Shown: piece after piece, positions 16,570-57,857 of the stretch
Layout of the letters: each line of letters opens with the position of its first letter
Numbering within the stretch: position 1 is the first letter of the stretch
The notes under the pieces: generated by a model
The model's database searches: none
What the model was told of the DNA's origin: nothing
Seen by the model: the letters and a program-made list of their open reading frames with translations, nothing else
From: Candidatus Australimonas brisbanensis
GTDB taxonomy: Bacteria; Chloroflexota; Dehalococcoidia; Lucifugimonadales; Australimonadaceae
Reading direction: 5' to 3'
DNA: 64,000 nucleotides
NCBI GenBank assembly: GCA_038147155.1
Contig: JAYQTA010000003.1
Location: 90,838-154,837 of the forward strand
Position numbers and translations under genes: made by a program

Positions 16570-18861
16570 TCACTCCTCCCGCGCGGCACGCAGCGCGGAG
16601 CACCCCTGCGCCAGGGGGGCCAGGGCGTCCGCCACGAACACCACGCCCTGGGAACGCTGCATGTAGGAAGGAGCGAGGTGGGTCGTGCGCCGCCCGAAGA
16701 CGTAACGCGCCAGGGTATCCCACGCGCTGGCATCGCGGGCGCTGGCCCACAGCACCGAGGGGGAGAGGGTGTTGTAGGCGTAGTTGGGGAACCACCACAG
16801 GTGGAACAGCGAGCCCACCTCGGTGAAGCCCACCAGCCCGTCCGCGTTGCGCGGGACGACCCACCGGCTGGAGAGCACCACGTCGGCGGGGGGCGGGAAG
16901 CCCATGGGGGAGGCGTTCAGGTCTTGGTAACTCACCTGCGGGTACGCACGCAGGTACCAGCGCCACTGCCACTGGAAGTTGTCGGAGGTGTCCACCAGGA
17001 TGCGCAGCGTCTGGGGGGTGAATCCGGGGCTCACGGCCAGCCGCCCGATGCACTCGGCGGCGTAGGTGGTCTCCTGCCCGGTCTGGGAGAAGACCAGCAG
17101 TTCGGTGGGGCGCTCCAGCCCCGCGACGTCGTAGGATGCGCGCCAGGCGGTGAATGAGGTGAACGCGGCGAGCACCGCCAGTGCCCCCAGCGCCACCGCA
17201 GCCCACGCGGGCGCCTGGGGTGAGCCCTCCCGCACCCCCAGCGCCGAGGCCGCCTGGTGCAGCACCTCTCCCGCCCCGTGGCGCAGCGCGGGCACCAGCG
17301 CCGCCACGCCCCCGGCGGCCAGCAGTACGCCGGTCCACAGCAGCGGGTCGCGCAGGGGGGTATCGGCCAGCAGCGCACGGGCAGCAACCAGGGGGATGCC
17401 CAGCGAGGGCAGGGCCCCGGCGGCGAGGGCCGGGAGGTTGAGCCGGGCGGTCGTGGTGCTACGGGCCAGCGCGTCCAGGGCGCGCGCGCCCACCAGCACC
17501 AGGGGCAGCGCCACGTCCACGGTGAGCCAGGGCATGCGCTCGCCCGCGTAGGCGAACAGCGCGGTGTTCAGCACCGCCCAACCCAGCAGGAAGCGGTCGA
17601 ACGCGCTCCGCCGCCGCCACACCAGCCACCCGGCCCCGGCCAGCGCGGCCACCACGGTGAGCGTCTCGTACAGACCCAGCGTGAGCCCGTAGTAGTACCA
17701 GGGTTGGCTGGCGCGCTCCACGCCGTGCTGGGCCATCCAGTAGCCCAGGGAGCCCCACAGGCCGGTGTAGAAGCCCTTGGCGTTGTGGAAGAGGGAGGTG
17801 TGCAGTGCCAGCCAGGGAGCCCAGAACAGCGCGGCCAACACCAGCCAGCGCCGCCCGTTCCAGCGCACCCCCATGGACAGCGCCAGCACAGCCAGCCCCA
17901 CCACCAGCGCCGCGGCGATGTACAGCCCACCCCCTGCCGGTGAGCCGGTGGGCACCGCGGCGCGGGTCAACTCCCCCGCGATGACGCGATGATCCGATGC
18001 GTCGGGGTTGGCCAGCACCAGCCCCAGCGGCCCCTGGGCCAGCGCGGCCAGCGGGGCCCACAGCGGCGCGGTGAGAGTCCCCAGCACCAGCAGCAGCGAA
18101 CCAGCGGGGGGCAATTGGGCCAGGGTGCGCCGGCCGCTCAGCCACGCCCACCAGCCGGGAGCGCTCCACAGCGCCAGAAGCAACCCGAAGGAGCCCGCCA
18201 GCATGAAGGCCGTCTCCTTGGTGGAGAAGGCTGCTGACCAGGCCAGGGCCCACACCACCAGGTGCCAGTGCCGAGGCGCGCGGGTGTGACGCCAGACCAA
18301 TGCCGCCAGCACCAGGGCGAAGAGCGACATGTACACGTCGTTGCGCAGGAAGCGCGCGAAGTAGAGGCCCGTGGGGGAGGTGAGGAGCAGGAGACCCGCG
18401 CCCAGCGCCCCCCAGCGGCCCAGCGCCCCGCGCAGCGCCAGGGGGAGCGCCACCACCGCCGCGCCCGCCAGCGCGGGCAGCAATCGTGCCGTCACGTCTG
18501 AGGAGCCCAGCAGCTTGAAGGTGCCCGCGGCCAGGTGGAACAGAAGCGGGCCGTGGGTGAGCGGGGTGTGGGTGTAGCCCATCCCCTCGGCGTAGCGCCA
18601 GGCGTACCAGGCGTGGAGCAGCTCGTCATAGTGCAGCGCACGTCCGCCCACATCCCACAGCCGGGTGGTCAGTGCCATGCCCGTCAGCGCGGCCCAGGCA
18701 CAGCGCTCCAGCCGTGACAGCCCGCCCCACCACGCCCATGCCCGGTGCGGCGCGGAGCGTGCCCACACCCGCGTGCGGGCCCATCGTTCACGCGCTCCGG
18801 CGCGTGCGCGGGCGAGTAGAGCGCGTGCGCGCTCGACCACCTGGCCCCAGCGCCGGCGCAT
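16570..18861 (-). CDS. GT-C-fold glycosyltransferase-like membrane protein (PMT_2 / TIGR03663-like)
   Basis: Start trimmed to ATG 18861..18859 (MRRRWGQV...), which shares one base with the upstream stop. HYDELLHAWYAWRY first-loop acidic motif followed by many helices. Confidence 0.72.
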   Translation of the reverse strand: MRRRWGQVVERARALLARARAGARERWARTRVWARSAPHRAWAWWGGLSRLERCAWAALTGMALTTRLWDVGGRALHYDELLHAWYAWRYAEGMGYTHTPLTHGPLLFHLAAGTFKLLGSSDVTARLLPALAGAAVVALPLALRGALGRWGALGAGLLLLTSPTGLYFARFLRNDVYMSLFALVLAALVWRHTRAPRHWHLVVWALAWSAAFSTKETAFMLAGSFGLLLALWSAPGWWAWLSGRRTLAQLPPAGSLLLVLGTLTAPLWAPLAALAQGPLGLVLANPDASDHRVIAGELTRAAVPTGSPAGGGLYIAAALVVGLAVLALSMGVRWNGRRWLVLAALFWAPWLALHTSLFHNAKGFYTGLWGSLGYWMAQHGVERASQPWYYYGLTLGLYETLTVVAALAGAGWLVWRRRSAFDRFLLGWAVLNTALFAYAGERMPWLTVDVALPLVLVGARALDALARSTTTARLNLPALAAGALPSLGIPLVAARALLADTPLRDPLLWTGVLLAAGGVAALVPALRHGAGEVLHQAASALGVREGSPQAPAWAAVALGALAVLAAFTSFTAWRASYDVAGLERPTELLVFSQTGQETTYAAECIGRLAVSPGFTPQTLRILVDTSDNFQWQWRWYLRAYPQVSYQDLNASPMGFPPPADVVLSSRWVVPRNADGLVGFTEVGSLFHLWWFPNYAYNTLSPSVLWASARDASAWDTLARYVFGRRTTHLAPSYMQRSQGVVFVADALAPLAQGCSALRAAREE

Positions 18862-21800
18862 CACGGGTTCACCTGGTAGACGATGAATCCGTTGGACACG
18901 AACGCCACTGTCCCCAGCGCCGCCACGCCCGCCCCGGCATCCGGGCCGTAGGCCCCCAGTTCGCGGGTGCCCACCACCACGTAGTCCGCGCCGTAGCGCG
19001 CCAGCAGAGGAGCGGCCTCCTCGGGGGTTGCGGCGCGGTAGATGGCGCGGGCGTCGGCACAGCGGGCATCGATGGCGGCCCCGTCCGAGCGCCACTGGCG
19101 CTCGCTGCCCGTCCAGGCCAGCACCGTGGCCCGTCCTGTCGCCGCGGCGATGCGCCCCGCCGTGGTGTAGGAGGAGTTGCCGCAGCCCGCATCGCGTGTG
19201 GACACCTCGGGCGCCTCCAGCACCACGGAATCGCGGGGGGTGTTCGTCCGCACCCACTCGATGACGGCGAGCTCACCGGGGGCGGACCGGGCCATGTCCG
19301 AGAGCCCGTCCAGGCTGAAGCGCCCGCCGCTCTCGGCGACCCGGCTGGCCACCGCCGCCGCCGGGTAGTAGGCGGTGAGGACCGCGCCCGCCACCAGCGC
19401 GCCCGTCCACACCGCTCGGCCCACCCGACCGGGCACGCCGTCGCGCCGCCACAGGCTGCCCACGTACCAGATGCCGAAGGCGCCCACCACCGCCAGCAGC
19501 TGCCAGGCCTGGTAGGTGAACTTGAAGTAGGTGTTCCAGCGCCGCAGGCCGCCGCCGAACACGTCCACCACGTGCCAGAGCTCCACGCCCATCACCAGCA
19601 TCAGCGCCATGCCCGTCACCATCAGCACCGCGGCCACCCCCCCCTCCTGGGGCTCGCGCCCGCCGCGCGCCCGCTCGCCGTCGCGGTGCGCCAGCGTCCA
19701 GGCCACGTAGAAGGCGAGGGTTGCGGCCGCGGCCAGCGGCAGCACCGTGAGCAGGCGCGCGATGGCGAGGGAGGGCAGGGGGGCCCCATCCGGCCCGTGC
19801 TCCGCGTAGACGATGCCGTTGTAGAGGAGCAGTCCGGCCAGCAGGGCTCCTGCCGCGAAGCGCGTGACGCCCGTGTTCAGGCTGAAGGAGCTCTCGTCCA
19901 GCGAGGTGAGCCGTACCCCGGCCCGGTGGAGCACCAGCAGCAGCGCGAACAGCGCATAGATGGGGAAGCCGTAGATGGGCTGGAGCCACAGGACGATGGG
20001 GGAGAAGGTGAGCCCCGAGACCAGGAGCAGCCTGCCCAGGTGGAACCCAGCCCTGGTCACCGACCGGCGAGCCGCCAGCACCAGGAGGGGGGCCACCAGA
20101 ACGGCCTGGCTCCCCCACAGGATAGCCAGGTGGACGGGGCGGGTGAGCAGGTCCTTCAGCGGCAGCACGCCCTGGGCTGCGGGCTCGAAGGTCGCAAGGA
20201 AGGGCCAGATCAGCGCCAGCGCGGCGCCGGTGAAGAGCCCCGCCGCCGTCAGCGCCCGCGCCAGGGTCCAGCGGCCCACCAGCTTGCGCACCGGGCGCCA
20301 GCGGTCCAGGCTGCGCCGGTAGGTGTAGGACGCACCTTGACCGGAGCCTGAGGCGCCCACGGCCAGCAGATCCCCATGCAGCGCCACCGCCGCGCCGAAG
20401 TCGCCCTGGGAGCCCGCATCGGCACCGGTCACGCGCGCGTGCGGCTGCCACCCATCGCCGCCCAGGTGGTACAGGTAGGCGGCGCCGGCGCGCTGCGCCC
20501 CCGCGTGCTCATGGGGCGAGGTGGCCGCGAGGTAGAGGCCGGAGACGGCCACCGCTGCCCCGAAGGAGCTGCGCGCCGTGGCCTCGCGCTCCCGCAGCTG
20601 CTCCATGGTGACCCATTCGCCGTCTTGCCAGTTGAACAGTTGCACCGCGCCCGCTCCGCCCACCACCAGGACGCGCCCATCGGCCGCCAGCGAGCGACCC
20701 ATCCCGGCGATGCCGGCGTCCTCCCGCGCCCGCAGCGGCTCCGCCGCCCGCCAGCCGTCGGACCAGCGCAGCCAGCGGTGCACCGCACCCATGCCGTCAG
20801 CGGGCGCGCCCGCCAGCAGTTCGGCCTCGTTGAGCACCACATTACGGCCGAATGACTCCCCCGCGCCGGGCGGGCTCACCTGCAGCGAGTGCGCCCACCG
20901 GCCCTCGGTGCGCTCGTACAGGTGCACCGTCCCCAGCGAGCCCACGGCGATGGTCGTCCCGTCTACCGCGACGGCGCGTCCGAAGCCTGTGGCGGGGTCC
21001 GGGGGACGCAGGGTGGTGCGCAGCGTCCAGCGCGTGCCCTCCTCATCGTCGCGGGTGTAGACCAGCACCAATCCGGTGCGCGCGGCGCCGGGCGCGCCCA
21101 CCACCAGCGTGCGCTCGTCCAGTGCCACCGCCGCGCCGAACCGTGCGCTGGCCTCCGGTGACGGGTGCCGGAGCCGCCCGGCCGAGCGCCACGCCCCGTC
21201 GACGTTGCGGAACAGGCGCACCTGCCCGGCGTAGGGGACGTCCTCCACCGGGGTGCCCGGCGCGCCGATCACCAGAACGCCGGCACGCAGCGCCACCGCT
21301 GCCCCCAGCTGGTCCGTGCGCGCGGAGCGCACCGCGTTGAGCAGGATCGCGCCCACCACCAGGGCCGCGCTCAGCGGCAGGTCCCACAGGTTGATTGCCC
21401 CCAGCGCACCGGCGCTGGTCAACGCCACCAGCACCAGCCCCCAGTGCTGGCGCAGCGCGCCACGGCGCAGCAGCCCCGGCTGGAGTACCAGCTGCACCGA
21501 CGCCGCCACCGCCAGCAGCAGGAACCCCAGGGAGAGCACGTGCGGGTGCAGGTCGCCCAGCACCAGGCTGAAGGCGGGGAACTCGGAGATGGCCCCCGGC
21601 ACCACCCGCGATGCCTTGAACCACCACCAGAAGCCGTCGGGGTGCCAGCCCGGCGCGGGGGCGTCGGCGCTCAACCCCTCGATGCCCACCCAGCCCCAGA
21701 AGCCCGCAGTGCCACCGCCCCCTGCCCGCAGCAGCTCCAGCACCCCCTCCAGGTTGGAGGCGATGAGGAGCAGGAACACCGCTGCAACCCCGGCCAGCGC

Positions 21801-22442
21801 CGCCCCGTCCTGGCTCCCGCGCGCCAGGCGAACTAGGGATGAGGCGAGCCCGAACGCCGCCACCGCGCCCAGCGCCCCCACCGTGGCCATGCCCAGGGTG
21901 TAGCCCACACCCACGCTTACCCCGGTGAGCAGGGTGAGGGCGCCGATGAACAGGTAGCCCAGGTAGTAGTAGGAGACGGGTTCACCCGCCATCCACGCGT
22001 CCGTGGGCGGGTAGTGGGGTGAGGTGGTGACGGCGCTGAGGAACATCAGGTCCGAGGTCTGCTCGGTGTGGCCGATACCGGGCACCGATGCGCGCAGCAA
22101 CGCCACTCCCACCAGCACCGAGACCAGCACCAATTCAGCGGTGAGCACCGGGCCAGAGTGTTCGCGCACCTGTGCCCACAACTCATGCAGCTGACGGCGC
22201 ACGGGCAGCCACGCTACCAGCGCCACCAGCGCGAGGGCCACCAGCACCGACCAGCGCGAGTTGGGGAGCGTGTGGGTGAGGCCGATGGCCCAGGTGGCGA
22301 GCCCCACCAGCAGCAGGCCCAGGGGTTTGGAGAACGCCCACCAGCCGGCGGGCATGCGGGAGAAGGCACGCCAGGCCAGCGGCGCGGCCACCAGTGCCAT
22401 CGCCTCCAGGGCCACCAGCCATAGGGCCAAGGTCAGCAGCAC
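18861..22442 (-). CDS. DUF2298 ('Chlor_Arch_YYY') membrane protein with inserted FG-GAP-type repeat block
   Basis: 1193 aa. GEPVSYYYLGYLF signature. Polytopic N- and C-terminal regions flank seven FG-GAP-like repeats (residues about 377-716). Confidence 0.75.
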   Translation of the reverse strand: MLLTLALWLVALEAMALVAAPLAWRAFSRMPAGWWAFSKPLGLLLVGLATWAIGLTHTLPNSRWSVLVALALVALVAWLPVRRQLHELWAQVREHSGPVLTAELVLVSVLVGVALLRASVPGIGHTEQTSDLMFLSAVTTSPHYPPTDAWMAGEPVSYYYLGYLFIGALTLLTGVSVGVGYTLGMATVGALGAVAAFGLASSLVRLARGSQDGAALAGVAAVFLLLIASNLEGVLELLRAGGGGTAGFWGWVGIEGLSADAPAPGWHPDGFWWWFKASRVVPGAISEFPAFSLVLGDLHPHVLSLGFLLLAVAASVQLVLQPGLLRRGALRQHWGLVLVALTSAGALGAINLWDLPLSAALVVGAILLNAVRSARTDQLGAAVALRAGVLVIGAPGTPVEDVPYAGQVRLFRNVDGAWRSAGRLRHPSPEASARFGAAVALDERTLVVGAPGAARTGLVLVYTRDDEEGTRWTLRTTLRPPDPATGFGRAVAVDGTTIAVGSLGTVHLYERTEGRWAHSLQVSPPGAGESFGRNVVLNEAELLAGAPADGMGAVHRWLRWSDGWRAAEPLRAREDAGIAGMGRSLAADGRVLVVGGAGAVQLFNWQDGEWVTMEQLREREATARSSFGAAVAVSGLYLAATSPHEHAGAQRAGAAYLYHLGGDGWQPHARVTGADAGSQGDFGAAVALHGDLLAVGASGSGQGASYTYRRSLDRWRPVRKLVGRWTLARALTAAGLFTGAALALIWPFLATFEPAAQGVLPLKDLLTRPVHLAILWGSQAVLVAPLLVLAARRSVTRAGFHLGRLLLVSGLTFSPIVLWLQPIYGFPIYALFALLLVLHRAGVRLTSLDESSFSLNTGVTRFAAGALLAGLLLYNGIVYAEHGPDGAPLPSLAIARLLTVLPLAAAATLAFYVAWTLAHRDGERARGGREPQEGGVAAVLMVTGMALMLVMGVELWHVVDVFGGGLRRWNTYFKFTYQAWQLLAVVGAFGIWYVGSLWRRDGVPGRVGRAVWTGALVAGAVLTAYYPAAAVASRVAESGGRFSLDGLSDMARSAPGELAVIEWVRTNTPRDSVVLEAPEVSTRDAGCGNSSYTTAGRIAAATGRATVLAWTGSERQWRSDGAAIDARCADARAIYRAATPEEAAPLLARYGADYVVVGTRELGAYGPDAGAGVAALGTVAFVSNGFIVYQVNP

Positions 22443-22472
22443 GCGCTCTCCCTGCTCAACTCTGCGGGCATC

Positions 22473-23450
22473 CTATCTCCCGGCGGCGGGCTCGTCCCCG
22501 AACAGCGCGTCCACGAAGTCATCGGTGTCGAAGAGCGAGAGGTCGTTCTGCCCCTCCCCGGTGCCGATGAACAGCACAGGTAGGCCCAGCTCCTGGGCTA
22601 TCGCCACGGTGATGCCGCCCTTGGCAGTGCCGTCCAACTTGGCCAGCAGCACCCCGCTCACGCCCACCGCCTCCTTGAACACCCGCGCTTGCTCCAGACC
22701 GTTGTGCCCGGTGGTGGCGTCCACCACCAGGAGCGTCTGCTGGGGCGCGGAGGGTTCCAGGCGCTCTAGCACCCGGCGCACCTTGCGCAGTTCCTCGATC
22801 AGCGGGGTCTTGTTCTGGAGGCGTCCCGCCGTGTCCAGGATCATCACGTCCACCCCGCGCGCCACCGCTGCCTGGTAGGCATCGTAGGCCACCGCGCCGG
22901 GGTCGGAGCCCTGCTGGTGGGCAACCACCTCAGCGCTCAGGCGCTCACCCCACACCTGCAGCTGCTCGATGGCCGCGGCCCGGAAGGTATCGCCTGCGCC
23001 CACCAGCACCGAGAGGCCGAGGGCGTGGTAGTGGGCCACCAGCTTGGCGATGGAGGTGGTCTTGCCTGCCCCGTTCACCCCCACCACCATGAGCACGAAG
23101 GGCTTGGCCGGCAGACGCTCCTGGTCGTACCAGTCCCAGATGGTCTTGTCGGGCGGGTCCAGCAGCAGCGCCAGTTCTTCCTTGAACAGTTCCGGCACCT
23201 CGGCCGGGTCGCTGATGCCCTCATCCCGCACCCGCTCCCGTACCCGGTTCACCAGGGCGAGGCCCGTGTCCACGCCCACGTCGGCGGACAGGAGCGCGTC
23301 CTCCACCTCCTCCCACAGCGCCTCGTTGGAGAGCACCGCGCCCTGGAAGAGGGCACCGAGGCCCCCACCCCACCCCTTGCGGGTGCGGGCCAGGGCCTGG
23401 GAGGTCTGCTGCTTGCGGCGGAAGGGGTTGAAGGGCAAGGGGAGCCTCAC
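22473..23450 (-). CDS. ftsY: signal recognition particle receptor
   Basis: GVNGAGKTT, DTAGR and the TKLD-equivalent AKLDGTAKGG. Confidence 0.92.
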   Translation of the reverse strand: MRLPLPFNPFRRKQQTSQALARTRKGWGGGLGALFQGAVLSNEALWEEVEDALLSADVGVDTGLALVNRVRERVRDEGISDPAEVPELFKEELALLLDPPDKTIWDWYDQERLPAKPFVLMVVGVNGAGKTTSIAKLVAHYHALGLSVLVGAGDTFRAAAIEQLQVWGERLSAEVVAHQQGSDPGAVAYDAYQAAVARGVDVMILDTAGRLQNKTPLIEELRKVRRVLERLEPSAPQQTLLVVDATTGHNGLEQARVFKEAVGVSGVLLAKLDGTAKGGITVAIAQELGLPVLFIGTGEGQNDLSLFDTDDFVDALFGDEPAAGR

Positions 23451-23516
23451 TGCGCGGGGGCGCGTTCGCCTAGCCTAGCGTGCGCGGGCGGGTGAGTCCA
23501 AGGTGGCGCGCGGGCA

Positions 23517-24227
23517 CTAGGTGCCCAGGGCCGCCAGCGCCTCGGCGGCGGCGGCCTGCTCGGCGTCCGCCTTGCGGGGGCCGTTGCCCCGCCCGGCCGC
23601 CACTCCCGCCACCAGCACCTCGACGGTGAACACCCGGGCGTGGGCCGGCCCCTCGGTGCTCACCAGCCGGTAGGCGGGTAGCCCCTGGCCGGAGGCCTGC
23701 AGGTGTTCCTGGAGCGCGGACTTGGCATCGCGGGGTGCCCCTGTCTGCCCCACGCGGGTCAACCCCGCCTCGAGCCAACCCAGCGCCACGCACCGGGCGG
23801 CCTGCTCGCCGCCGTCCAGCAGCACCGCGGCGAGGACAGCCTCCAGTGCCTGAGCAAGGTTGGTGGGGCGTTCGCGCCCGCCGCCCGCCTCCTCCCCCGA
23901 CCCCAGCGCGAGGTAGTCGCCCAGGCCCAGCCGGCGCGCGATGACGGCCAGCGCCTTGCCCTGCACCAGCGATGCGCGTGCACGGGAGAGCGCACCCTCG
24001 TCCATGCCAGGCTGGCGCTGGTAGAGGGCCTCGGCCGCCACCCAGCCCAGGAAGGCATCGCCCAGGAACTCCAGACGCTCGTAGGAGGCGTGGCCCGGAT
24101 GCTCGTTCAGGTAGGAGCGATGCACCAACGCCTGCTGAAGCAGGCCCCGGTCGGTGAACCCCACGCCCAGGGCCTGCTCCAGCGCGTCCCAGTCCAGACC
24201 CTTGGGCCAGGGGCTGGGGTTAGTCAA
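23517..24227 (-). CDS. rnc: ribonuclease III
   Basis: ERLEFLGDAFL signature plus a C-terminal dsRBD. Confidence 0.92.
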   Translation of the reverse strand: MTNPSPWPKGLDWDALEQALGVGFTDRGLLQQALVHRSYLNEHPGHASYERLEFLGDAFLGWVAAEALYQRQPGMDEGALSRARASLVQGKALAVIARRLGLGDYLALGSGEEAGGGRERPTNLAQALEAVLAAVLLDGGEQAARCVALGWLEAGLTRVGQTGAPRDAKSALQEHLQASGQGLPAYRLVSTEGPAHARVFTVEVLVAGVAAGRGNGPRKADAEQAAAAEALAALGT

Positions 24228-24852
24228 AGATGCCCTTCGGCCACGGGGGCTGGGGGCGCTTCACCTCAGCCACGAAGGTGAGGCCACCGATGAGCCCCTT
24301 CACGCCCTCCCAGGCGGCAGCGGCCTCCTCCCCCGTGCGGGGACGGATCATCTTGAGGAACACGGGGTAGCCACCCTCGGCAACGATGGTGGGCGTACCG
24401 AACACGCCCGCCTCCCGCGCCTCGGCGTGGGAGGCGGCGATCTCATCCAGGGTGGAGCGGTCGGCCAGGTCCGCCTCGAAGCGGGCAACGTCGAGCCCCG
24501 CCTCCTCGGCCAGGGCACGCAGCCCTGCGGCATCGTTCAGCTCCATGCGCCGCTCGTGGCGTGCCTTCAGCAGCAGCGGCAGGAAGGCCCGCAGCGCCTC
24601 CGGGCCCTGGCGGCCCGCCGCAACGCCCGCGCGCAGCCCCCACAGGCTGGGGTTCAGCGCCTCGTCCGGCTCGGCCCAGGCGTGGTAGTCCGGCCCCTCC
24701 TTCTGGTTCACCTGCTCCAGGGAGAAGGGCTTCCAGGTGATTTCCAGGGGCATCTCGCCCGTCGCCTCACGCACCTGATCCAGCCAACCGGCCAGATTGA
24801 AGACATACGGTCAGCGGAAGTCGAAGTAGACGTCAGCCTTGATGGCGGCCAT
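24220..24852 (-). CDS. DsbA/FrnE-like thioredoxin-fold protein with in-frame UGA (candidate selenocysteine) at the first active-site position
   Basis: The track ORF starts at GTG 24774. Hand translation from ATG 24852 (AAAGGAGG 4 nt upstream) gives MAAIKADVYFDFR-TGA-PYVFNLAGWLDQVREATGEM..., in frame with the track ORF. The TGA (24813..24811) falls where DsbA-family proteins carry D-F-x-C-P-x-C-Y. GVFGTPT occurs later. Confidence 0.7.
24778..24797 (-). promoter_or_regulatory. SECIS-like hairpin downstream of UGA 24813..24811
   Basis: mRNA AUCUGGCC-GGUU-GGCUGGAU: 8-bp stem (two G-U pairs) with a GGUU apical loop beginning 21 nt after the UGA. Confidence 0.4.
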
Positions 24853-24917
24853 GGGGCCTCCTTTCGCACCTCGCACTGCCCCGCCGGTGGGGCACGCCGA
24901 TTCTACGCACCGGCGCA

Positions 24918-25100
24918 AGCCCCCGCCCACTGCGCGGGCTCGATGGAAGGGGGGCTCCCCCTTCGGCCCTCAAGGGCCTACCCCCGTCTCCGCTCGCTCG
25001 GCGCTCGCTCATGGCAGCGAGCAGCCGCCGGCATCTCTCGCTCACTCCGTCCACTGCGTGGGCTCGATGGAAGGGGGGCTCCCCCTTCGGCGCTCCGCGC
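24918..25100. repeat. two tandem left-end fragments of the hairpin-rich repeat family
   Basis: GGCTCGATGGAAGGGGGGCTCCCCCTTCGGC occurs twice in direct orientation (about 24938 and 25059). The first copy continues as in 26447..26515. Confidence 0.8.
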
Positions 25101-26378
<1,278 letters not shown>

Positions 26379-26420: not shown

Positions 26421-26707
26421 TTCCCCGCTCACTTCGTTCGCTCGATGGAAGGGGGGCTCCCCCTTCGGCCCTGAATGGCCTACCCCCGTCTCCGCTCGCT
26501 CGGCGCTCGCTCATGGAAGCAGGCGCGTGGCCAGCACGCATAGTGCGGTGTTTGGAATGGGGCGCAGCCCCGAGAGGGCAAATAACCCACGATAGTCCGG
26601 GCTAGGGGGGGGGCAGTGGGGGAGTGCAACTCCCCCCGCCGGGGGTTCGGCGCGCAGCGCCCAGGGGGTGTCCCCCTTGAAACAAGGCTGCCGCAGGCAG
26701 CGGGGAA
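26421..26707. repeat. full-length copy of the MITE/REP-like hairpin-rich repeat
   Basis: Ends TTCCCCGCTC...GAAGGGGGGCTCCCCCTT and CCCCCTTGAAAC..GGCTGCCGCAGGCAGCGGGGAA are imperfect inverted repeats. Internal CTAG-GGGGGGGCAGTGGGGGAGTGCAACTCCCCCC module. Confidence 0.8.
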
Positions 26708-37263: not shown

Positions 37264-37365
37264 CCGGTTCACCCGCCTCCCTGTTGTTCTCCTTGTTGGC
37301 TCAGGGGGTGCGTGCTACCATGCGGCGGTGATTCGTTCGGAAAATCACGAACCACCGAGGCGGCG

Positions 37366-38370
37366 ATGACCCCCACCCCCCCGCAGCACCAAGCCGGGCT
37401 GACCGCGGACACCGCGACGCTGCGCGAGCGGGCGCGCCGGGCCATCGCGGAGCAGCCCGCCAAGACGGTCACGGTGCTCTCCTGCCTGCTGGCCGCCCAC
37501 CATGAGTTGGGCTGGCTGCCCGCTGAGGCCCTGGACGAGGTCGCTCAGCGCATGGACACCTCGGCCAGCGCCGTCTGGTCCATCGCCTCTTTCTACCCCA
37601 ACTTCCGCTTCACCCCGCCCAACCGGCACGTGGTGGAGGTGTGCTGGGGCCCCACCTGCCACGTCATGGGCGCGCAGCCGTTGCTCCAGGGCCTGCTGAC
37701 CCACCTGGGGTTGGAGGGCGAGGGCGAGACGGATGACGGGGCCATCTCCCTCAAGTACAACCCGTGCCTGGGCGTGTGCCCGCACGGACCGGCCATGTCC
37801 TTCGACCACCAGCTGGCGGGGCGCGTCTCGCTGACCGAGGCTGAGCGGCGCATCGCGCTGCTGCGCGTGGCGGACGAGGAGGCAGCCAAGGAGGCCCGGC
37901 TGGGCGAGGAGTCGGAGCGCGAGGCCGCCGAGCGGCGCGAGCGCTCCTCCCGTGCGGCGGTGGACCGCAACGCGACCCGGGCGCGTGCCCAGCGCGAGGA
38001 CGCGGTGGCCTCGGCCATCGCCGACCTGTACGCGCCGCGTGAGTCCAAGGTGACCATGCCCGTTGACCGCGTGCCCGGTGAGAGCGCGCCCGTGGCGGAG
38101 GCCCCGAAGCCTGCTCTCCGTGAGGAGAGCGCCGAGGAGCGCGCCGCACGCGTCGCGAGCATCGAGGCGGCCATCGCGGGGCTGTCGGGCAAGCCTGCCG
38201 CCGAGGCGCCCGCCAACGAGGCCGTCGCGGAGCCGGAGGCGAAACCCGCTGCCACGGCCAAGGCGAAGCCCGTTAAGGCCAAGGCGGCGCCCGAGAAGTG
38301 GGCCGCCAAGAAGCCCGCGAAGAAGCCGGCCAAGAAGAAGAACGCCAAAGGCGATGGGGGTAAGGCGTGA
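37366..38370 (+). CDS. NuoE-like [2Fe-2S] subunit with long charged / Lys-Ala-Pro-rich C-terminal extension
   Basis: CWGPTC...CLGVC Cys ligands. Start at ATG 37366 after GAGG. The last roughly 165 aa are low complexity, ending AKKPAKKPAKKKNAKG. Confidence 0.8.
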   Translation: MTPTPPQHQAGLTADTATLRERARRAIAEQPAKTVTVLSCLLAAHHELGWLPAEALDEVAQRMDTSASAVWSIASFYPNFRFTPPNRHVVEVCWGPTCHVMGAQPLLQGLLTHLGLEGEGETDDGAISLKYNPCLGVCPHGPAMSFDHQLAGRVSLTEAERRIALLRVADEEAAKEARLGEESEREAAERRERSSRAAVDRNATRARAQREDAVASAIADLYAPRESKVTMPVDRVPGESAPVAEAPKPALREESAEERAARVASIEAAIAGLSGKPAAEAPANEAVAEPEAKPAATAKAKPVKAKAAPEKWAAKKPAKKPAKKKNAKGDGGKA

Positions 38371-40148
38371 GCGAGGCGTACGAGGCGCTCTCCCAGCGCG
38401 CCGCTGACCATGTGGCCGATCTCGCCGCGCGCCCGTGGGTGCGGGTGGGCACGGGACTCATGGGCCTGGCATCCGGTGCGCGCGATACGCTGGGCGCGCT
38501 GCGGCACGACATCGCCCGCACCGGTGTGGACGCGACCATCTCCGAGGTGGGCACCCTGGGCCTGTGCTACGCCGAGCCCCTGGTGGACATCCAGGCGCCC
38601 GGCGGCCCGCGCGTGCTCTACGGCAACGTGGGCCCGGAGGACGTGCCGGAACTGGTGGCTGAACACGTGACGGGCGGACGGCCCGTCGCCTCGCGGGCGC
38701 TGGCGGTGATCGAGGGCGCCGTGCCCGGCGTCCCCGCCCTGGACGACCTGCCCATGATGGTGAAGCAGGTGCGGGTGGCGCTGCGCAACGCGGGCCATAT
38801 CGACCCCTCGGACATCCTCCAGTACATCGCTCGTGGCGGCTACGCGGGGCTCGACCGGGCCCTGGGCATGGAGCGCACCGCCCTGGTGGACGAGGTGAAG
38901 CGCTCCAACCTGCGTGGGCGGGGCGGAGCCGCCTTCTCCACGGGCACCAAGTGGAGCTTCCTTGCGGGCAACCCCTCGCCGGTCAAGTACATCCTGTGCA
39001 ACTGCGAGGAGGGCGACCCGGGCGCCTTCAACGACAAGACCATCCTGGACTCGGACCCCTACACCCTGGTGGAGGGGTGCACCATCGCGGGCTTCGCCTG
39101 CGGGGCATCCAATGGCATCGTCTTCATCCGCGACGGCCACGAGGCGCCCATCGAGCGCACCCGCGCGGCGATCGAGGCGGCCTACGAGCACGGCCTGCTG
39201 GGGGAGGACATCCTCGGCTCCGGCTTCACCTTCCACATGGAGGTGGCCCTGGTGGGCGAGTCGTACGTGGCGGGTGAGGAGACGGCGCTGATGGAGGCCA
39301 TCGAGGGCCGCCGCTCCATGCCCCGCTTCCGTCCGCCCTTCCCTGCGGCCTACGGCGTGTGGGGCAAGCCCTCCAACATCAACAACATCAAGACGCTCTC
39401 TTACGCACCGGAGATCGTGCGCCGGGGGGCCGACTGGTTCCTGTCCATCGGCACCGAGAAGTCGCCCGGCACCGCCATCGCGTGCCTCTCGGGCGACATC
39501 CGCTACCCCGGGCTGGTGGAGGTGCCCTTCGGCCTGACCATGCGTCAGGTGGTGGAGGAGCTGGGCGGCGGGGACCCGGACGGCCGGCCCATCAAGTTCC
39601 TTCAGACGGGCGGGCCCCTGGGAGGGGTGCTGCCGGCGGACCAGCTGGACATCGTCCTGGACTTCGATGCCATGGTGGCGGCGGGGGCCATGTTCGGCTC
39701 CGGCGGGCTCATCGTGTGCAACGAGGGGCGTTCGGTGGTGGACCTGATCCGCGTGCTGGTGGCCTTCGACCAGCTGGAGTCGTGCGGCAAGTGCTTCCCG
39801 TGCCGGTTGGGTTCTTCCCACCTGCTGGAGGTGCTGGAGCGGCTGTGCGCCGGGGAGGGGCGTCCGGGTGACTGGGCGCTGATGGAGCGGGTGGGCAACA
39901 ACATGCGCGCCGGTTCCCTGTGCGGCCACGGGCAGCTGGGCTACAACCCGGTGGCCTCGGCGCTGCGCTTCTTCAAGGAGGAGTTCGAGGCGCAGGCCTC
40001 TGGCCAGGGGCCCATCCCCATCGGCCGGTTCGTGGGCCCGCGCAACACCCGCCGGGGCGCGCAGCTGGAGGGCGAGACGCCCACCGCCGCCGTCAGGGCT
40101 GACTTCGTGGCTCGTCCGCGCCCCATCGGCGCTGGCGCGGGGGAGTAG
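38367..40148 (+). CDS. NuoF-like NAD(H)/FMN-binding, [4Fe-4S] subunit with N-terminal thioredoxin-like domain
   Basis: GRGGAAFSTGTKW, FMN/NADH glycine loops and ESCGKCFPCR cluster motif. GTG start overlaps the upstream stop. Confidence 0.88.
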   Translation: MSEAYEALSQRAADHVADLAARPWVRVGTGLMGLASGARDTLGALRHDIARTGVDATISEVGTLGLCYAEPLVDIQAPGGPRVLYGNVGPEDVPELVAEHVTGGRPVASRALAVIEGAVPGVPALDDLPMMVKQVRVALRNAGHIDPSDILQYIARGGYAGLDRALGMERTALVDEVKRSNLRGRGGAAFSTGTKWSFLAGNPSPVKYILCNCEEGDPGAFNDKTILDSDPYTLVEGCTIAGFACGASNGIVFIRDGHEAPIERTRAAIEAAYEHGLLGEDILGSGFTFHMEVALVGESYVAGEETALMEAIEGRRSMPRFRPPFPAAYGVWGKPSNINNIKTLSYAPEIVRRGADWFLSIGTEKSPGTAIACLSGDIRYPGLVEVPFGLTMRQVVEELGGGDPDGRPIKFLQTGGPLGGVLPADQLDIVLDFDAMVAAGAMFGSGGLIVCNEGRSVVDLIRVLVAFDQLESCGKCFPCRLGSSHLLEVLERLCAGEGRPGDWALMERVGNNMRAGSLCGHGQLGYNPVASALRFFKEEFEAQASGQGPIPIGRFVGPRNTRRGAQLEGETPTAAVRADFVARPRPIGAGAGE

Positions 40149-40151
40149 ACT

Positions 40152-42947
40152 ATGTCTGACCCGGTCAAGCTGACCATCAACGGGGTCGAGGTCGAGACCA
40201 CCCCCGACAAGATGCTGATCCAGGCTGCCAACGAGGCCGGGGTCTACATCCCCTACCTTTGCTACCACCCCGGCATGAAGCCCTATGGGGCATGCCGCAT
40301 GTGCGTGGTGGAGGTGGAGGGCCAGCGTGGCACCCCCGCCGCCTGCACCCTGCCGGTGCGCGATGGCATGGTGGTGAACACCGTAGCCGCCCCCGCCGAG
40401 GGCGTGCGCTCCACCACGCTGGACCTGCTGCTCTCCGAGCACCCCCATGGGTGCCTCACCTGTCACCGCATCGACCTGTGCGGGCCGCAGGACGTGTGCC
40501 TGCGCCACGTGGACGTGCTGGACCGGTGCGTCACCTGCCCCAAGAACGAGCGGTGCGAGCTCAAGGACACCACCCGCTTCCACCCGCAGCCGCAGGTCTC
40601 CCCGCTGACCTTCCAGTACCGGGGCCTCCAGGTGGAGACCAAGGACCCCTTCTACGACCGCGACTACAACCTGTGCATCGTGTGTGCGCGGTGCGTGCGC
40701 GCCTGCGATGAGCTGCGGGGCGACGTGGCCCTGGGCATGACCGAGCGCGCCGGCCAGGTGCTGGTGGGCACGGTGCTGGGCGAATCGCTGCTGGAGGCGG
40801 GGTGCGAGTTCTGCGGGGCGTGCCTGGACGTGTGCCCCGTGGGCGCTCTCACCGAGACGGACAACAAGTGGGAGCGCGCCACCCGCACGGTGCAGTCGGT
40901 GTGCGGGGAGTGCCCCGTGGGCTGCACCATGACCTACGAGGTGAACAGGCAGGGCAGGGTGGTGCGGGCCATCCCTGAGCTCAACTCCCCGGTGAACAAG
41001 GGGCAGGCGTGCTTCCGGGGCAAGTTCGGCTACACCTACGTCAACGACAAGCGCCGCCTGCGCACCCCGCTGGTGCGCCGCGACGGCGTGCTCACCGAGG
41101 CCACCTGGGAGGAGGCGATCGCCGCCGCCGCCGAGGGGTTGGCCCCGCACAAGGGCGCCTTTGCCCTGCTCACCGGCGGGCGCGAGACCAACGAGGAGCT
41201 GTACGCGGCGCAGAAGTTCGCCCGCGCGGTCATGGGCTCCAACTCCGTGGACATGGCCTCCAACGACCGCCCCGGCGTGGCCGAGGGCATCCAGGACGTG
41301 TTCAGCGTCTTCGCGGGCACCCTCTCCGTGCAGGAGCTGCGCTCCTCCAAGGTGGTGCTGGCCGTGAGCGCCAACCCCACCGAGGACCAGAACGTGGTGG
41401 CGGTGCCCATCAAGCAAGCGGTGCGCGCGGGCACCCAGAAGCTCATCGTGGTGGACGCTCGCGAGGTGGAGCTCACCCGCTACGCCGCCCTGTGGCTGCG
41501 CCCGTACCCCGGCACCGAGGGCGCTGTGGTGGGTGGGATGCTCAAGGCGGTGCTGGACCTGGGCCTGGCCGACCCCGCCGAGGTTGCGGGCCGCGCCGAC
41601 GGGTTCGACGACCTGGCCGCCTCCCTGGAGGCGTTCACCCCGGAGGCCGTCGAGGACGTGACCGGCGTGCCTGCCGAGCAGCTGCGCGCCGCCGCCGAGC
41701 TGTACGCCACCGGCGGCCCGGCGGCCACCCTCTACGCCGCCGACTCCACCGCCCACGGCACCCGGCGCAACCTGGGCCGCGCCGCCACGGCCCTGGCTGT
41801 GGTGACGGGCAACGTGGGCGTCCCCGGAGCGGGGCTCATGCCGCTGATGGCCGGAGCCAACGTGCAGGGCGCATGGGACATGGGCGTGTGGTCCATGTCG
41901 CTGCCCGGCCACAGTTTCGTGCGCGACGGTGCGGCCCGCGAGCGGCTGGGCGCACTGTGGGGCGTGAGCCTGCCCACCGCCGAGGGGCGGGGCAACGTGA
42001 ACATCGTGCGCGGGGCCTCAGACGGGACGGTGCGGGCGATGCTGGTGCTGGGCACCCACGCCGCCATGGCCGACGGCTCTCTGGGCGATGTGGCCGGGGC
42101 CTTCGCCAACCTTCAGTTCCTGGCCGTGTCCGATGCCTTCCCCTCGGCCATCACCGAGCAGGCCGACGTGGTCTTCCCCGCCACCGTCTGGGCGGAGAAG
42201 ACCGGCACCTACACCAACCTTGAACGCCGCGTGCAGGCGCTGGTGCCGGTGGTGTGCCCGCACAACTCCCAGGCCCGCTCTGACGTGGCGCTCATCGGTG
42301 ACCTGGCCACGGCCATGGGGGCGCGCGGATTCAGCTGGGCCGGACCGGAGACGGTGCTGGAGGAAATAGCCCAGGCGGTGCCGCAGTACGCGGGCATCAC
42401 CTACGCGGGCCTGCTGGACGATACCGTCCGGTCGGCCAAGCCCGACACCTCCAACCCCCAGCCCACCCAGGTGCTCTACTCCGAGGACGTGCGCCAGGGC
42501 ACCCGCTGGCCCTACCCGGACACCCGCCCGGTGCTGGCCCCGCTCACCCTCTACGCGCGCCCCGAGCGCACCAGCGATGAGTTCCCGCTGATGCTGGCCC
42601 ACGGTCGGGTGCTGGTGCAGCCGGGGCGCGATGCGGGCGTCGCCTCCGACGGGAAGCGCAACCGGGTGGCCCGCGCCGAGGAGTTCGTCCTGCACCCGGC
42701 GGACGCCGAGCGCGCGGGGCTCACCGACGGAGAGCACGTGTGGGCAGTTGCCGATTCCGGCTGGCGCCAGGGTGGGTACGTGCGCATCAGCGATGAGACG
42801 CTGGAGGGGGTCGTCTCCCTCACCAGCCTGTTCGGGGCCCTGGCCGTGGAGGCCGACGCCTCTGCCGACCCCGACCCCATGAACCGCATACCCCGGCTCG
42901 ACGCGCGCCCCGTGCGCATCGAGCGCGAGCAGGGGGCCCAGGCATGA
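40152..42947 (+). CDS. NuoG / formate-dehydrogenase-alpha-like molybdopterin-fold subunit
   Basis: N-terminal 2Fe-2S motif (CYHP...CRMC), H-x3-C-x2-C-x5-C, two CxxCxxCxxxCP clusters, CGECPVGC MopB cluster, C-terminal MopB_CT-like domain. Confidence 0.85.
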   Translation: MSDPVKLTINGVEVETTPDKMLIQAANEAGVYIPYLCYHPGMKPYGACRMCVVEVEGQRGTPAACTLPVRDGMVVNTVAAPAEGVRSTTLDLLLSEHPHGCLTCHRIDLCGPQDVCLRHVDVLDRCVTCPKNERCELKDTTRFHPQPQVSPLTFQYRGLQVETKDPFYDRDYNLCIVCARCVRACDELRGDVALGMTERAGQVLVGTVLGESLLEAGCEFCGACLDVCPVGALTETDNKWERATRTVQSVCGECPVGCTMTYEVNRQGRVVRAIPELNSPVNKGQACFRGKFGYTYVNDKRRLRTPLVRRDGVLTEATWEEAIAAAAEGLAPHKGAFALLTGGRETNEELYAAQKFARAVMGSNSVDMASNDRPGVAEGIQDVFSVFAGTLSVQELRSSKVVLAVSANPTEDQNVVAVPIKQAVRAGTQKLIVVDAREVELTRYAALWLRPYPGTEGAVVGGMLKAVLDLGLADPAEVAGRADGFDDLAASLEAFTPEAVEDVTGVPAEQLRAAAELYATGGPAATLYAADSTAHGTRRNLGRAATALAVVTGNVGVPGAGLMPLMAGANVQGAWDMGVWSMSLPGHSFVRDGAARERLGALWGVSLPTAEGRGNVNIVRGASDGTVRAMLVLGTHAAMADGSLGDVAGAFANLQFLAVSDAFPSAITEQADVVFPATVWAEKTGTYTNLERRVQALVPVVCPHNSQARSDVALIGDLATAMGARGFSWAGPETVLEEIAQAVPQYAGITYAGLLDDTVRSAKPDTSNPQPTQVLYSEDVRQGTRWPYPDTRPVLAPLTLYARPERTSDEFPLMLAHGRVLVQPGRDAGVASDGKRNRVARAEEFVLHPADAERAGLTDGEHVWAVADSGWRQGGYVRISDETLEGVVSLTSLFGALAVEADASADPDPMNRIPRLDARPVRIEREQGAQA

Positions 42948-57023: not shown

Positions 57024-57857
57024 ATGGCAACCGACGGCGGCTACGCACATCCCGAGCACCTGGTGGACCCTGCCTGGCTCCAGGCGCACCTGAACGATGG
57101 GGACCTGGTCATCGTGGAGGTGGGCGCCCAGCCCGACCCCTTCGCCGCCGGGCACATCCCCGGCGCCATCCCGTGCGCTGACTGGCACATCAAGGACAGG
57201 GCCAACCCCGCGCTGGTGGCCCCGCCCGCCGAGGCTGCCGCCATGCTGGAGGCGCTGGGCATCGGCGACGGCACGCGCGTGGTCGCCTACGACCGCACCC
57301 GCAACCGCGACGCCTCCCGCCTGTGGTGGGTGCTGCGCTACTACGGCCACACCAACGTGCAGGTGCTGGACGGCGGGTGGAAGCACTGGGGCATCGTCGG
57401 CGGGCCGGTGGAGCAGGGGGCGGGCAGCGCCCCCCGCGCCGGGGCGCGCTTCACCCCCCGCGTGGACGCCGCGCACCTGTGCACCGTGGACAGCCTGAAG
57501 GCGGCCATCGGCGATGGGCGCTCCGTCATCTGGGACGCGCGCGGGGAGGACGAGTACACCGGCGCCAACGACCGGGGCAACAAGCGCAAAGGCCACGTGC
57601 CGGGGGCGCGCCACCTGGAGTGGACGAACCTGGTGAACGAGGCCGACCACACCTTCAAGCCCGCCGCCGAGCTGCGAGCGCTGGTGGCCAGCATCGGCAT
57701 CAGCCCCGAGACACCCGTCCACGTCTACTGACAGGGGGGTGTCCGTGCGGCGCACGGCACACTGGCCCTCAGCCTCCTGGGCTACGAGAAGGCGTACATG
57801 TACGACGGGTCCATGGGTGAGTGGGCCAATCGGGACGACACTCCCCTGGAGATGTAG
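57024..57857 (+). CDS. two-domain rhodanese sulfurtransferase with in-frame UGA (candidate selenocysteine) replacing the catalytic Cys
   Basis: ATG 57024 after GAGGAGG. The track ORF stops at TGA 57729..57731 (…TPVHVY*). The same frame continues QGGVRAAHGTLALSLLGYEKAYMYDGSMGEWANRDDTPLEM to TAG 57855..57857, completing the C-x-G-x-R active-site loop and the YDGSxxEW motif. Confidence 0.75.
57739..57762 (+). promoter_or_regulatory. SECIS-like hairpin downstream of UGA 57729..57731
   Basis: GUGU-CCGUGC-GGC-GCACGG-(C)-ACAC: 6-bp and 4-bp stems with one bulged C. The G-rich apical loop starts at 57749, 17 nt after the last base of the UGA. Confidence 0.4.

Follow-up and report, generated by a model that had tools for sequence, protein, structure and literature searches.

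Gene organization at the locus

The window (the whole 64-kb stretch of DNA that was analyzed) contains a gene for a DsbA-like protein of the thioredoxin fold that is interrupted near its 5' end by an in-frame TGA and that, with a probability of roughly 0.9, is a genuine bacterial selenoprotein gene truncated by ordinary open reading frame (ORF) calling. The gene and its neighbors comprise the following features:

24857..24864, minus strand: Shine-Dalgarno sequence AAAGGAGG, read directly, with the 4-nt spacer CCCC before the ATG
24850..24852, minus strand: true start ATG of the full-length gene, from direct reading and translation and from the start codon located 13 codons 5' of the TGA in orthologs
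24220..24852, minus strand: full-length DsbA-like (DR2335-type) gene, read as a selenoprotein gene, from translation, Pfam DSBA, and the PDB 7DK9 profile match
24811..24813, minus strand: in-frame TGA, read as Sec14 in the motif D-F-R-U-P-Y-V, from the column of the sole Cys in Cys homologs and the ortholog codons
24778..24797, minus strand: candidate bacterial SECIS hairpin AUCUGGCC-GGUU-GGCUGGAU, with its apical loop at 24789..24786
24772..24774, minus strand: GTG taken as the start by mechanical ORF calling (ORF list), really the internal codon Val27
24222..24220, minus strand: TAA stop of the selenoprotein gene
23517..24227, minus strand: RNase III gene rnc, directly downstream of the selenoprotein gene, with a TTG start overlapping the selenoprotein stop (TTGACTAA)
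22473..23450: ftsY, after rnc
18861..22442: gene for a DUF2298-like membrane protein, after ftsY

The reading frame from ATG 24852 translates as MAAIKADVYFDFR*PYVFNLAGWLDQVREATGEM... and the full-length product comprises 210 sense codons with the UGA counted in as Sec14, compared to the mechanically called ORF of 184 aa (24220..24774). The original prediction had placed a Shine-Dalgarno sequence with a 4-nt spacer before an ATG at 24852, a TGA at 24813..24811, and the start of the listed ORF at GTG 24774, and all of these coordinates were recovered on the minus strand. Translation likewise agreed with its statement that Val takes the place of Cys at the second motif position (U-P-Y-V). The gene order dsbA-like, rnc, ftsY, DUF2298 was the same around Cys and Sec orthologs, and the selenoprotein gene leads a dsbA-like - rnc - ftsY cluster that is conserved in the Dehalococcoidia and SAR202. 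The orthologous selenoprotein gene usually abuts or overlaps rnc.

Conservation of the TGA codon and its reading frame

Orthologs were compared at 80 loci, one genome per species, all of which belonged to Dehalococcoidia, SAR202, or other Chloroflexota. The TGA codon was kept in 79 of these species-level loci and replaced by TGC in a single one. That it occupies the nucleophilic Cys position, as had been proposed, was supported by alignment with five full-length Cys homologs (P0037, P0082, P0109, P0114, and P0117), in which it fell exactly on their only Cys within the motif D-[FY]-R-C-P-F-V. Two of these Cys homologs (L081 and L084) are positional orthologs and have the same rnc-ftsY-DUF2298 neighbors.

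Coding conservation with purifying selection was found on both sides of the TGA across the 80 loci and no other disruption was present. The 13 codons preceding it keep their amino acids via synonymous changes, including the stretch K-A-D-V-Y-[YF]-D-F-R and an invariant Asp at -3 that is encoded by GAC in 60 orthologs and GAT in 20. At -13 relative to the TGA, 75 of the 80 orthologs have a start codon (ATG in 70, GTG in three, and TTG in two), with a GGAGG-type site in the matching upstream position among the orthologous loci listed.

A pseudogene, or a sequencing or assembly error at 24811..24813 in place of TGC or TGT, would require just one base change. However, the TGA recurs in 79 of 80 independently assembled genomes within a frame that is otherwise undisrupted and under selection on both sides, and in the closest relatives (88-97% identity, from other assemblies) the gene is likewise called truncated. 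These shared truncated calls in independent assemblies argue against the sequencing error that the original prediction had itself raised, and the probability of decay or error is practically negligible.

The conservation data also bear on a reading in which the UGA is a genuine stop that closes a 13-codon leader ORF, followed by a separate truncated DsbA-like gene from GTG 24774 or nearby, with the downstream hairpin serving re-initiation or regulation. Mechanical ORF calling and most database calls do begin downstream of the TGA, and the window revealed no Sec machinery. Of the 120 protein clusters closest to it in the database, 114 lack the N-terminus, which is the outcome that gene calling halted by a UGA would produce. 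The called starts of the homologs are inconsistent with one another (MFNLAGW, MWLDQV, MVKDA, MGGE, and others). The 13 upstream codons are conserved as protein and collinear with the Cys homologs that are read through without interruption, and truncation would strip the DSBA fold of its first beta-strand and its active-site residue. In addition, the Pfam match begins at residue 7 (DSBA PF01323: 63.8 bits versus a cut-off of 25.6; residues 7-161 aligned to profile positions 3-175 of 191), such that the 13 upstream codons belong to the domain, and the PDB profile alignment begins at position 6. The concern that orthologs might start at the downstream GTG and lack the N-terminal strand was therefore answered by start codons kept 13 codons upstream of the TGA and by upstream codons lying within the DSBA domain. 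A leader peptide is highly improbable and was rejected on the conservation data together with the pseudogene and sequencing error.

The downstream hairpin and proposed decoding of the UGA

Folding confirmed the hairpin noted at 24797..24778, which has eight base pairs, two of them G-U, and a GGUU apical loop that begins 21 nt after the UGA, with an energy of -9.5 kcal/mol. These values satisfy the published constraints of the bacterial SECIS (bSECIS) model, namely a loop of 3-9 nt, a stem of 4-16 bp, a G at loop position 1 or 2, a spacing of 16-37 nt, and a minimum free energy of -7.5 kcal/mol or lower. The energy limit was passed by 74 of 76 Sec forms in the hairpin segment and the core stem CAGCC/GGCUG is conserved among orthologs. 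Their loops were GUGU in 48 cases and AUGU in 12, the latter failing the G rule because neither of these positions is a G. In five Cys forms the conserved hairpin is missing and the segment folds at -4.6 to -7.4 kcal/mol, compared to a mean of -9.6 kcal/mol.

The hairpin also stood out at synonymous sites. When 65 fourfold-degenerate codon columns were ranked by third-position entropy, codons +6, +7, +8, and +10 after the Sec, all inside the hairpin, took four of the five lowest places, and codon -1 took the remaining one (the fourth lowest). Ala at +6 is encoded by GCA in 63 of 72 sequences, a codon otherwise uncommon at Ala positions of the selenoprotein gene. The SECIS-like character first suggested from the one sequence held up on three counts: the published constraints, the conserved synonymous sites, and its absence from Cys orthologs. 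Covariation was weak, with double changes in two pairs only and shuffles not clearly beaten on these measures, owing to a 5-bp core that is almost invariant and a lower stem of the 8-bp hairpin that shifts register between clades. The single-sequence fold was not exceptional against shuffles (z = -1.2 in a sequence of 71.6% GC) and the significance of the hairpin derives from the comparative data. No Rfam SECIS or tRNA-Sec family matched the whole window at gathering thresholds or the segment 24720..24870 at E-values up to 10.

The candidate resembles the Escherichia coli fdhF-type SECIS and the consensus bSECIS in being a stem-loop immediately 3' of the UGA within the coding sequence and in its small apical loop, which opens with G then G or U. 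It differs from the fdhF element in having neither sequence similarity to it nor the bulged U, and the fdhF apical loop begins 3 nt nearer to the UGA.

Genes for selA, selB, selD, or tRNA-Sec were not detected in the 64-kb window or in approximately 1 Mb of related loci. ARAGORN found no tRNA-Sec in the window or any of the loci, tblastn with approximate E. coli SelD, SelA, and SelB queries found no sel gene in the window and 80 loci, and none emerged when 30 window ORFs were scanned against Pfam. The sole tblastn match, in locus L015, was rejected as it corresponds to EF-Tu. We infer the Sec machinery of the source organism from the codon conservation and from literature describing selenoprotein-rich Dehalococcoidia, as Dehalococcoidia metagenome-assembled genomes carry 46-49 selenoprotein genes (PMC13326102) and SelD/SelA/SelB occur in several Chloroflexi (PMC5029168 supplement).

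A genome-wide reassignment of UGA was rejected because many of the high-GC3 window genes end in TGA as an ordinary stop. The original prediction had also pointed to a second window gene with a UGA at a redox Cys, and this was verified as a rhodanese gene at 57024..57857 with its TGA (57729..57731) at the catalytic Cys position in the context VHVY-U-QGGVRA. A further reading is that the UGA is recoded as Cys or Trp by a near-cognate or suppressor tRNA while the hairpin does no more than delay termination, in favor of which are the equivalence of the codon to Cys in homologs and the indirect nature of the case for Sec machinery in the source genome. Against it, the hairpin matches SelB-dependent bacterial SECIS elements in its spacing, its loop size, and its G-rich loop, other genes of the window terminate normally at TGA, the DsbA-like family and the second UGA gene are both catalogued kinds of selenoprotein, and the Dehalococcoidia are reported to be selenoprotein-rich. 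Recoding to Cys or Trp is highly improbable.

In the selenocysteine reading, translation would begin at ATG 24852 and reach the UGA at 24813..24811, where the hairpin would work as a bacterial SECIS through its G-rich 4-nt apical loop 21 nt downstream. This element is predicted to recruit SelB-GTP-Sec-tRNA(Sec), resulting in insertion of Sec instead of termination.

Fold, active site, and relation to known proteins

The selenoprotein belongs to the DR2335/Rv2466c-like branch of DsbA-like thioredoxin-fold proteins. Its profile match to PDB 7DK9 (DR2335) covered profile positions 6-203 at an E-value of 1.2e-26 and aligned Cys24 of 7DK9 with the Sec, and the Pfam Rv2466c-like family was matched barely past its threshold (29.1 versus 27 bits). 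The AlphaFold2 model of the Cys ortholog P0037 (pLDDT 91.7) places the Cys immediately before a helix at residues 20-35. The best Foldseek matches in the PDB were native DR2335 and its C24S mutant (TM 0.79), followed by Rv2466c (TM 0.67-0.71). Membership of NCBIfam NF041057 (Rcas_1661 thioredoxin-like (seleno)lipoprotein, "DsbG-like") was not indicated, as a partial match gave 28.4 bits versus a cut-off of 190. The product is probably cytoplasmic, as the protein begins directly in the first beta-strand, and, judging from DsbA-family proteins, a conserved G-T-P-T motif is probably the cis-proline loop beside Sec14.

The active-site motif is U-P-Y-V in the window protein and U-P-[FY]-V in its orthologs. 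The C-x-x-C (or form-1 U-x-x-C) motif of the classical DsbA/FrnE dithiol oxidoreductases is absent from the window protein and the orthologs, and the translated window protein contains no Cys over its full length, making Sec its only redox-active residue. With no second Cys in the motif or elsewhere in the protein, dithiol or selenol-thiol exchange within the motif is impossible. Instead, Sec14 would cap the N-terminus of helix alpha-1 and would have to act by mono-selenol chemistry, attacking a disulfide, an S-thiolated substrate, or an electrophile to form a selenenyl-sulfide intermediate. An external thiol, either a low-molecular-weight thiol or a partner protein, would then resolve this intermediate by analogy with the mycothiol-dependent Rv2466c.

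The repeated occupation of this position by Sec makes it almost certainly the catalytic redox nucleophile in DR2335-type single-Cys DsbA-like proteins, which provides a strong hint for the uncharacterized members of this type. The group also clearly exemplifies a selenoprotein family that has Sec rather than Cys as the norm across a whole bacterial class. It further exposes a mis-annotation, as the window ORF and approximately 95% of its closest database homologs are called without the active-site strand, and functional or structural inference from such entries thus misses the catalytic residue. The understanding of Sec decoding itself is unchanged by this gene.

Descriptions of selenoproteins of the DsbA-like and COG2897 rhodanese kinds date back to 2005 (PMC1088965), and the present gene is a further member of an already catalogued kind. 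The Sargasso Sea selenoproteome (PMC1088965) includes a DsbA-like "form 1" (COG2761/FrnE-type, U-x-x-C), which shares the DSBA fold, a Sec at the first (nucleophilic) motif position, and a bacterial SECIS immediately 3' of the UGA, but retains the resolving Cys where the selenoprotein described here has Val. The 2026 prokaryotic selenoprotein catalogue lists a "DsbA-like form 2" assigned to PF01323 with the motif DxxUP and the representative MDP6049977.1 (PMC13188914). Its motif fits the D-F-R-U-P of the window protein, and it has a single Sec with no CxxC partner listed; this correspondence is by domain and motif description only, and form 2 may be another DSBA sub-branch such as the HCCA-isomerase-like proteins. 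It is possible, if rather doubtful, that the orthologous group is distinct from form 2 and constitutes an uncatalogued DR2335-type subfamily characterized by a single selenol in U-P-x-V, an otherwise Cys-free sequence, an invariant KRPQPPWP tail at the C-terminus, Sec by default at the active site (79 of 80 species), and a position abutting or overlapping rnc at the head of the cluster. Such a subfamily would point to a predicted housekeeping mono-selenol reductase.

Among characterized structures, DR2335 of Deinococcus radiodurans (7DK9; C24S mutant, 7DKA) is the closest counterpart, being both the best profile match, aligned end to end, and the best structural match, with a single Cys (C-P-Y-A) at the Sec position and a related C-terminal RRPVP tail. 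It differs in having Cys instead of Sec, an identity of approximately 25%, and no tail matching the invariant KRPQPPWP of the orthologous group, and the paper on DR2335 reports no function (PMC8945050). Rv2466c of Mycobacterium tuberculosis (PF22234), the second-best structural neighbor, has the same DsbA-like fold and is a cytoplasmic DsbA-like reductase dependent on the low-molecular-weight thiol mycothiol, but carries a CPWC dithiol motif in contrast to the U-P-Y-V of the selenoprotein.

Gene structure and conservation of the in-frame TGA

The minus-strand reading (GCGAAAGGAGGCCCC-ATG-GCC...GAC TTC CGC TGA CCG TAT GTC TTC AAT CTG GCC GGT TGG CTG GAT CAG GTG) agreed in all coordinates and sequence details with the original prediction of a selenocysteine (Sec) codon, covering its Shine-Dalgarno site, ATG, TGA, hairpin, and downstream GTG.

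Features of the gene at 24220..24852 (minus strand)
24864..24857, minus: Shine-Dalgarno site AAAGGAGG, read in the sequence
24852..24850, minus: ATG start, read in the sequence
24813..24811, minus: in-frame TGA, read in the sequence
24797..24778, minus: hairpin AUCUGGCC-GGUU-GGCUGGAU, 8 bp including two G-U pairs, -9.5 kcal/mol
24774..24772, minus: annotated GTG, from the mechanical ORF listing
24222..24220, minus: TAA stop, read in the sequence

The mechanical listing held only 24220..24774 (184 aa), and translation from the ATG gave 210 sense codons with one internal stop, between MAAIKADVYFDFR and PYVFNLAGWLDQVREATGEM..., and no Cys residues. Reassignment of TGA in the genetic code was ruled out since TGA terminates many well-supported genes within the window. 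With the stop replaced by Cys, residues 7-161 matched Pfam DSBA (PF01323; 63.8 bits versus a cut-off of 25.6), so the 13 codons preceding the TGA belong to the DSBA domain. Weaker Pfam matches were to Rv2466c-like, Thioredoxin_4, and Thioredoxin_5, and the NCBIfam search gave no more than a partial match, below threshold, to the Rcas_1661 (seleno)lipoprotein family.

Among 5.8 billion proteins searched, 497 were relatives. Among the best 120 clusters, 114 covered only 66-92% of the query, with assorted starts downstream of the stop (MFNLAGW..., MWLDQV..., MVKDA..., MGGE...), and five were full length with the motif D-[FY]-[RH]-C-P-F-V-[YW]-N. In the alignment against Cys homologues that had been proposed as a check, the window stop coincided with their active-site Cys, in a C-P-x-V motif rather than C-x-x-C. 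The database homologue P0111 had an aberrant N-terminus (MTYSYTTLWDVTAVPCVYN...) and seems to be no true Cys form but a gene call that entered 5' of the UGA from a different frame, illustrating the need to check full-length database matches.

Scanning one genome per species (GTDB) yielded 80 orthologous loci, all from Dehalococcoidia, SAR202, or other Chloroflexota MAGs, with tblastn matches running from residue 1 to 206-210 through the stop in 75. As to whether relatives carry TGC or TGA, 79 sequences had TGA and locus L042 alone had TGC; this count includes the window and omits a locus truncated at its contig end. A start codon lay 13 codons 5' of the TGA in 75/80 (ATG 70, GTG 3, TTG 2), preceded by a GGAGG-type site in the loci printed. 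Codons upstream of the TGA kept their amino acids through synonymous changes, including an invariant Asp at -3 from Sec (GAC 60, GAT 20), Phe or Tyr at -2, and Tyr or Phe at -4 (78/80) and -5 (80/80). This shared TGA, together with the conserved start and upstream residues, excluded a sequencing error at the TGA, a pseudogene, and a separate gene beginning at the downstream GTG.

Candidate SECIS hairpin

The hairpin loop starts 21 nt past the UGA. Its fold alone was unremarkable against shuffles (z = -1.2) at the window GC content of 71.6%, and the question of chance was therefore taken to a comparison with other genomes. Orthologues shared a 5-bp core (CAGCC-GUGU-GGCUG) downstream of the UGA that encodes N-A-A-V-W-L-D. 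The lower stem was clade-dependent, with a G.G mismatch flanked by A-U/U-A in most orthologues and full pairing in the window (C-G) and loci L008 (U.G), L031 (U-A), and L018, while a distant clade had a bulged 7-bp stem. Over the orthologues, 74.6% of cells were paired versus 15-52% with the partner slid; strict covariation was weak because the core hardly varies, with double changes at two pairs only. The stronger test is that of synonymous sites, in which third-position entropy was computed over the whole gene for the 65 codon columns belonging to fourfold-degenerate families. Four of the five lowest values lay inside the hairpin and the other at codon -1, and the fourfold sites just beyond the hairpin (Pro +1 and Val +3) varied freely.

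Codons with the five lowest third-position entropies, in ascending order (numbered from Sec)
+7, GCC: C in 76/78
+10, CUG: G in 65/76
+6, GCA: A in 63/72, A being rare to uncommon at the gene's other Ala codons
-1: CGY only
+8, GUG: G in 50/63

Five Cys forms, two of them positional orthologues with the same neighbours, lacked the conserved hairpin; over the corresponding 30 nt their folding energies were -4.6 to -7.4 kcal/mol, compared with an average of -9.6 kcal/mol in 76 Sec forms. In the published bacterial SECIS consensus (PMC13188914), the loop has 3-9 nt with a G among its first two nucleotides, the stem 4-16 bp, the spacing is 16-37 nt, and the MFE <= -7.5 kcal/mol. The window hairpin agrees with this on every point and is a candidate SECIS. 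The energy limit was passed by 74/76 orthologues; loops among the orthologues were GUGU (48), AUGU (12, without the required G), GUUU (7), and further types. Rfam searches at the hairpin and over the window matched no family to the hairpin, as is usual for bacterial SECIS elements. The TGA in 79 sequences, the Cys alignment, and the hairpin uphold the predicted gene, and 24220..24852 (minus strand) is very probably a real selenoprotein gene (probability about 0.9).

Probable selenocysteine use and gene neighbourhood

The window encoded tRNA-Lys as its only tRNA gene and no tRNA-Sec, Pfam scans of 30 further window ORFs contained no SelA, SelB, or SelD, and ~1 Mb of related loci held no tRNA-Sec. 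Approximate E. coli SelD/SelA/SelB queries gave a single tblastn match in the related loci, which was EF-Tu and not Sec machinery. A second candidate selenoprotein is a two-domain rhodanese (SseA/COG2897-like) at 57024..57857 (plus strand), whose TGA (57729..57731) occupies the place of the catalytic Cys (VHVY-U-QGGVRA). It also has a GAGGAGG Shine-Dalgarno site and a hairpin with a GGC loop beginning 17 nt past the UGA; judged by sequence, it agrees with the UxxG selenoproteins catalogued as "rhodanese-related sulfurtransferase". SelD/SelA/SelB are reported in several Chloroflexi (PMC5029168 supplement) and Dehalococcoidia MAGs with 46-49 selenoprotein genes are among the richest known (PMC13326102). 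The TGA kept in 79 species, the UGA rhodanese, and these reports point indirectly to Sec machinery in this organism, which appears to use Sec. The window also contained an NAD-dependent formate-dehydrogenase-like or NuoEFG-like operon (37264..42947, plus strand) whose products are a thioredoxin-like 2Fe-2S subunit, an FMN subunit of Nuo51 type, and a molybdopterin oxidoreductase of 932 aa; the oxidoreductase gene had no in-frame TGA and its product, if FdhA, is therefore not a Sec form.

The selenoprotein gene heads a stretch (18861..24852, minus strand) that continues with rnc, ftsY, and a gene for a membrane protein of DUF2298 type, an order kept across Dehalococcoidia and SAR202. The rnc TTG start at 24227 overlaps the selenoprotein stop, an overlap frequent in orthologues (TTGACTAA). 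An rnc homologue was found in 80/84 loci, with ftsY next in 62, and rnc lay directly 3' of the selenoprotein gene in all loci listed, abutting or overlapping in most. The conserved order and overlap suggest translational coupling with housekeeping genes.

In the window and its closest relative (L001) only, the region 24190..24260 (minus strand) carries an imperfect duplication of the selenoprotein gene's 3' end (PQPPWPKGIFD), where the copy in another frame forms the RNase III N-terminus (NPSPWPKGLDWD); the pattern resembles a tandem duplication of ~33 nt specific to this lineage. Just upstream of the gene, three copies (one partial) of a ~100-nt intergenic repeat (24921..25018, 25045..25142, and 26423..26520) flank a DUF1015 gene, with none expected by chance. 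The repeat has an exact 29-nt palindromic core (CTCGATGGAAGGGGGGCTCCCCCTTCGGC) and may be REP- or MITE-like.

Protein fold and known DsbA-like selenoproteins

The family profile (positions 6-203) matched PDB entries 7DK9 and 7DKA (E = 1.2e-26) of DR2335, a single-Cys DsbA-like protein of Deinococcus radiodurans, whose only Cys (D-F-L-C-P-Y-A in 7DK9; mutated to Ser in 7DKA) aligns in the Sec column. The AlphaFold2 model of the Cys orthologue P0037 (mean pLDDT 91.7) puts the Cys after strand 9-15 and before helix 20-35, at the canonical active-site position of the thioredoxin fold. Foldseek with this model ranked DR2335 (7DK9, 7DKA) top (TM 0.77-0.79) and Rv2466c second (TM 0.67-0.71), then FrnE, kappa-class GSTs, and HCCA isomerase. 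According to a review of thiol reductases in Deinococcus, functional data do not exist for the DR2335 type (PMC8945050). As Sec is the only chalcogen nucleophile of the window protein, a mono-selenol cycle is proposed in which Sec would attack the substrate and an external thiol would resolve the selenenyl-sulfide.

A 2005 study of the Sargasso Sea (PMC1088965) described DsbA-like (UxxC, COG2761) selenoproteins as well as rhodanese ones of COG2897. The catalogue of 2026 (PMC13188914) separates a "DsbA-like form 1" (UxxC) from a "form 2" (PF01323, DxxUP), whose representative is named as a crotonase-family protein. The window motif D-F-R-U-P does not fit form 1 but fits form 2, and the window gene may belong to the same orthologous group as that representative. 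The window gene is of a selenoprotein kind already known, and its group is Sec-dominant, Cys-free, and rnc-linked.
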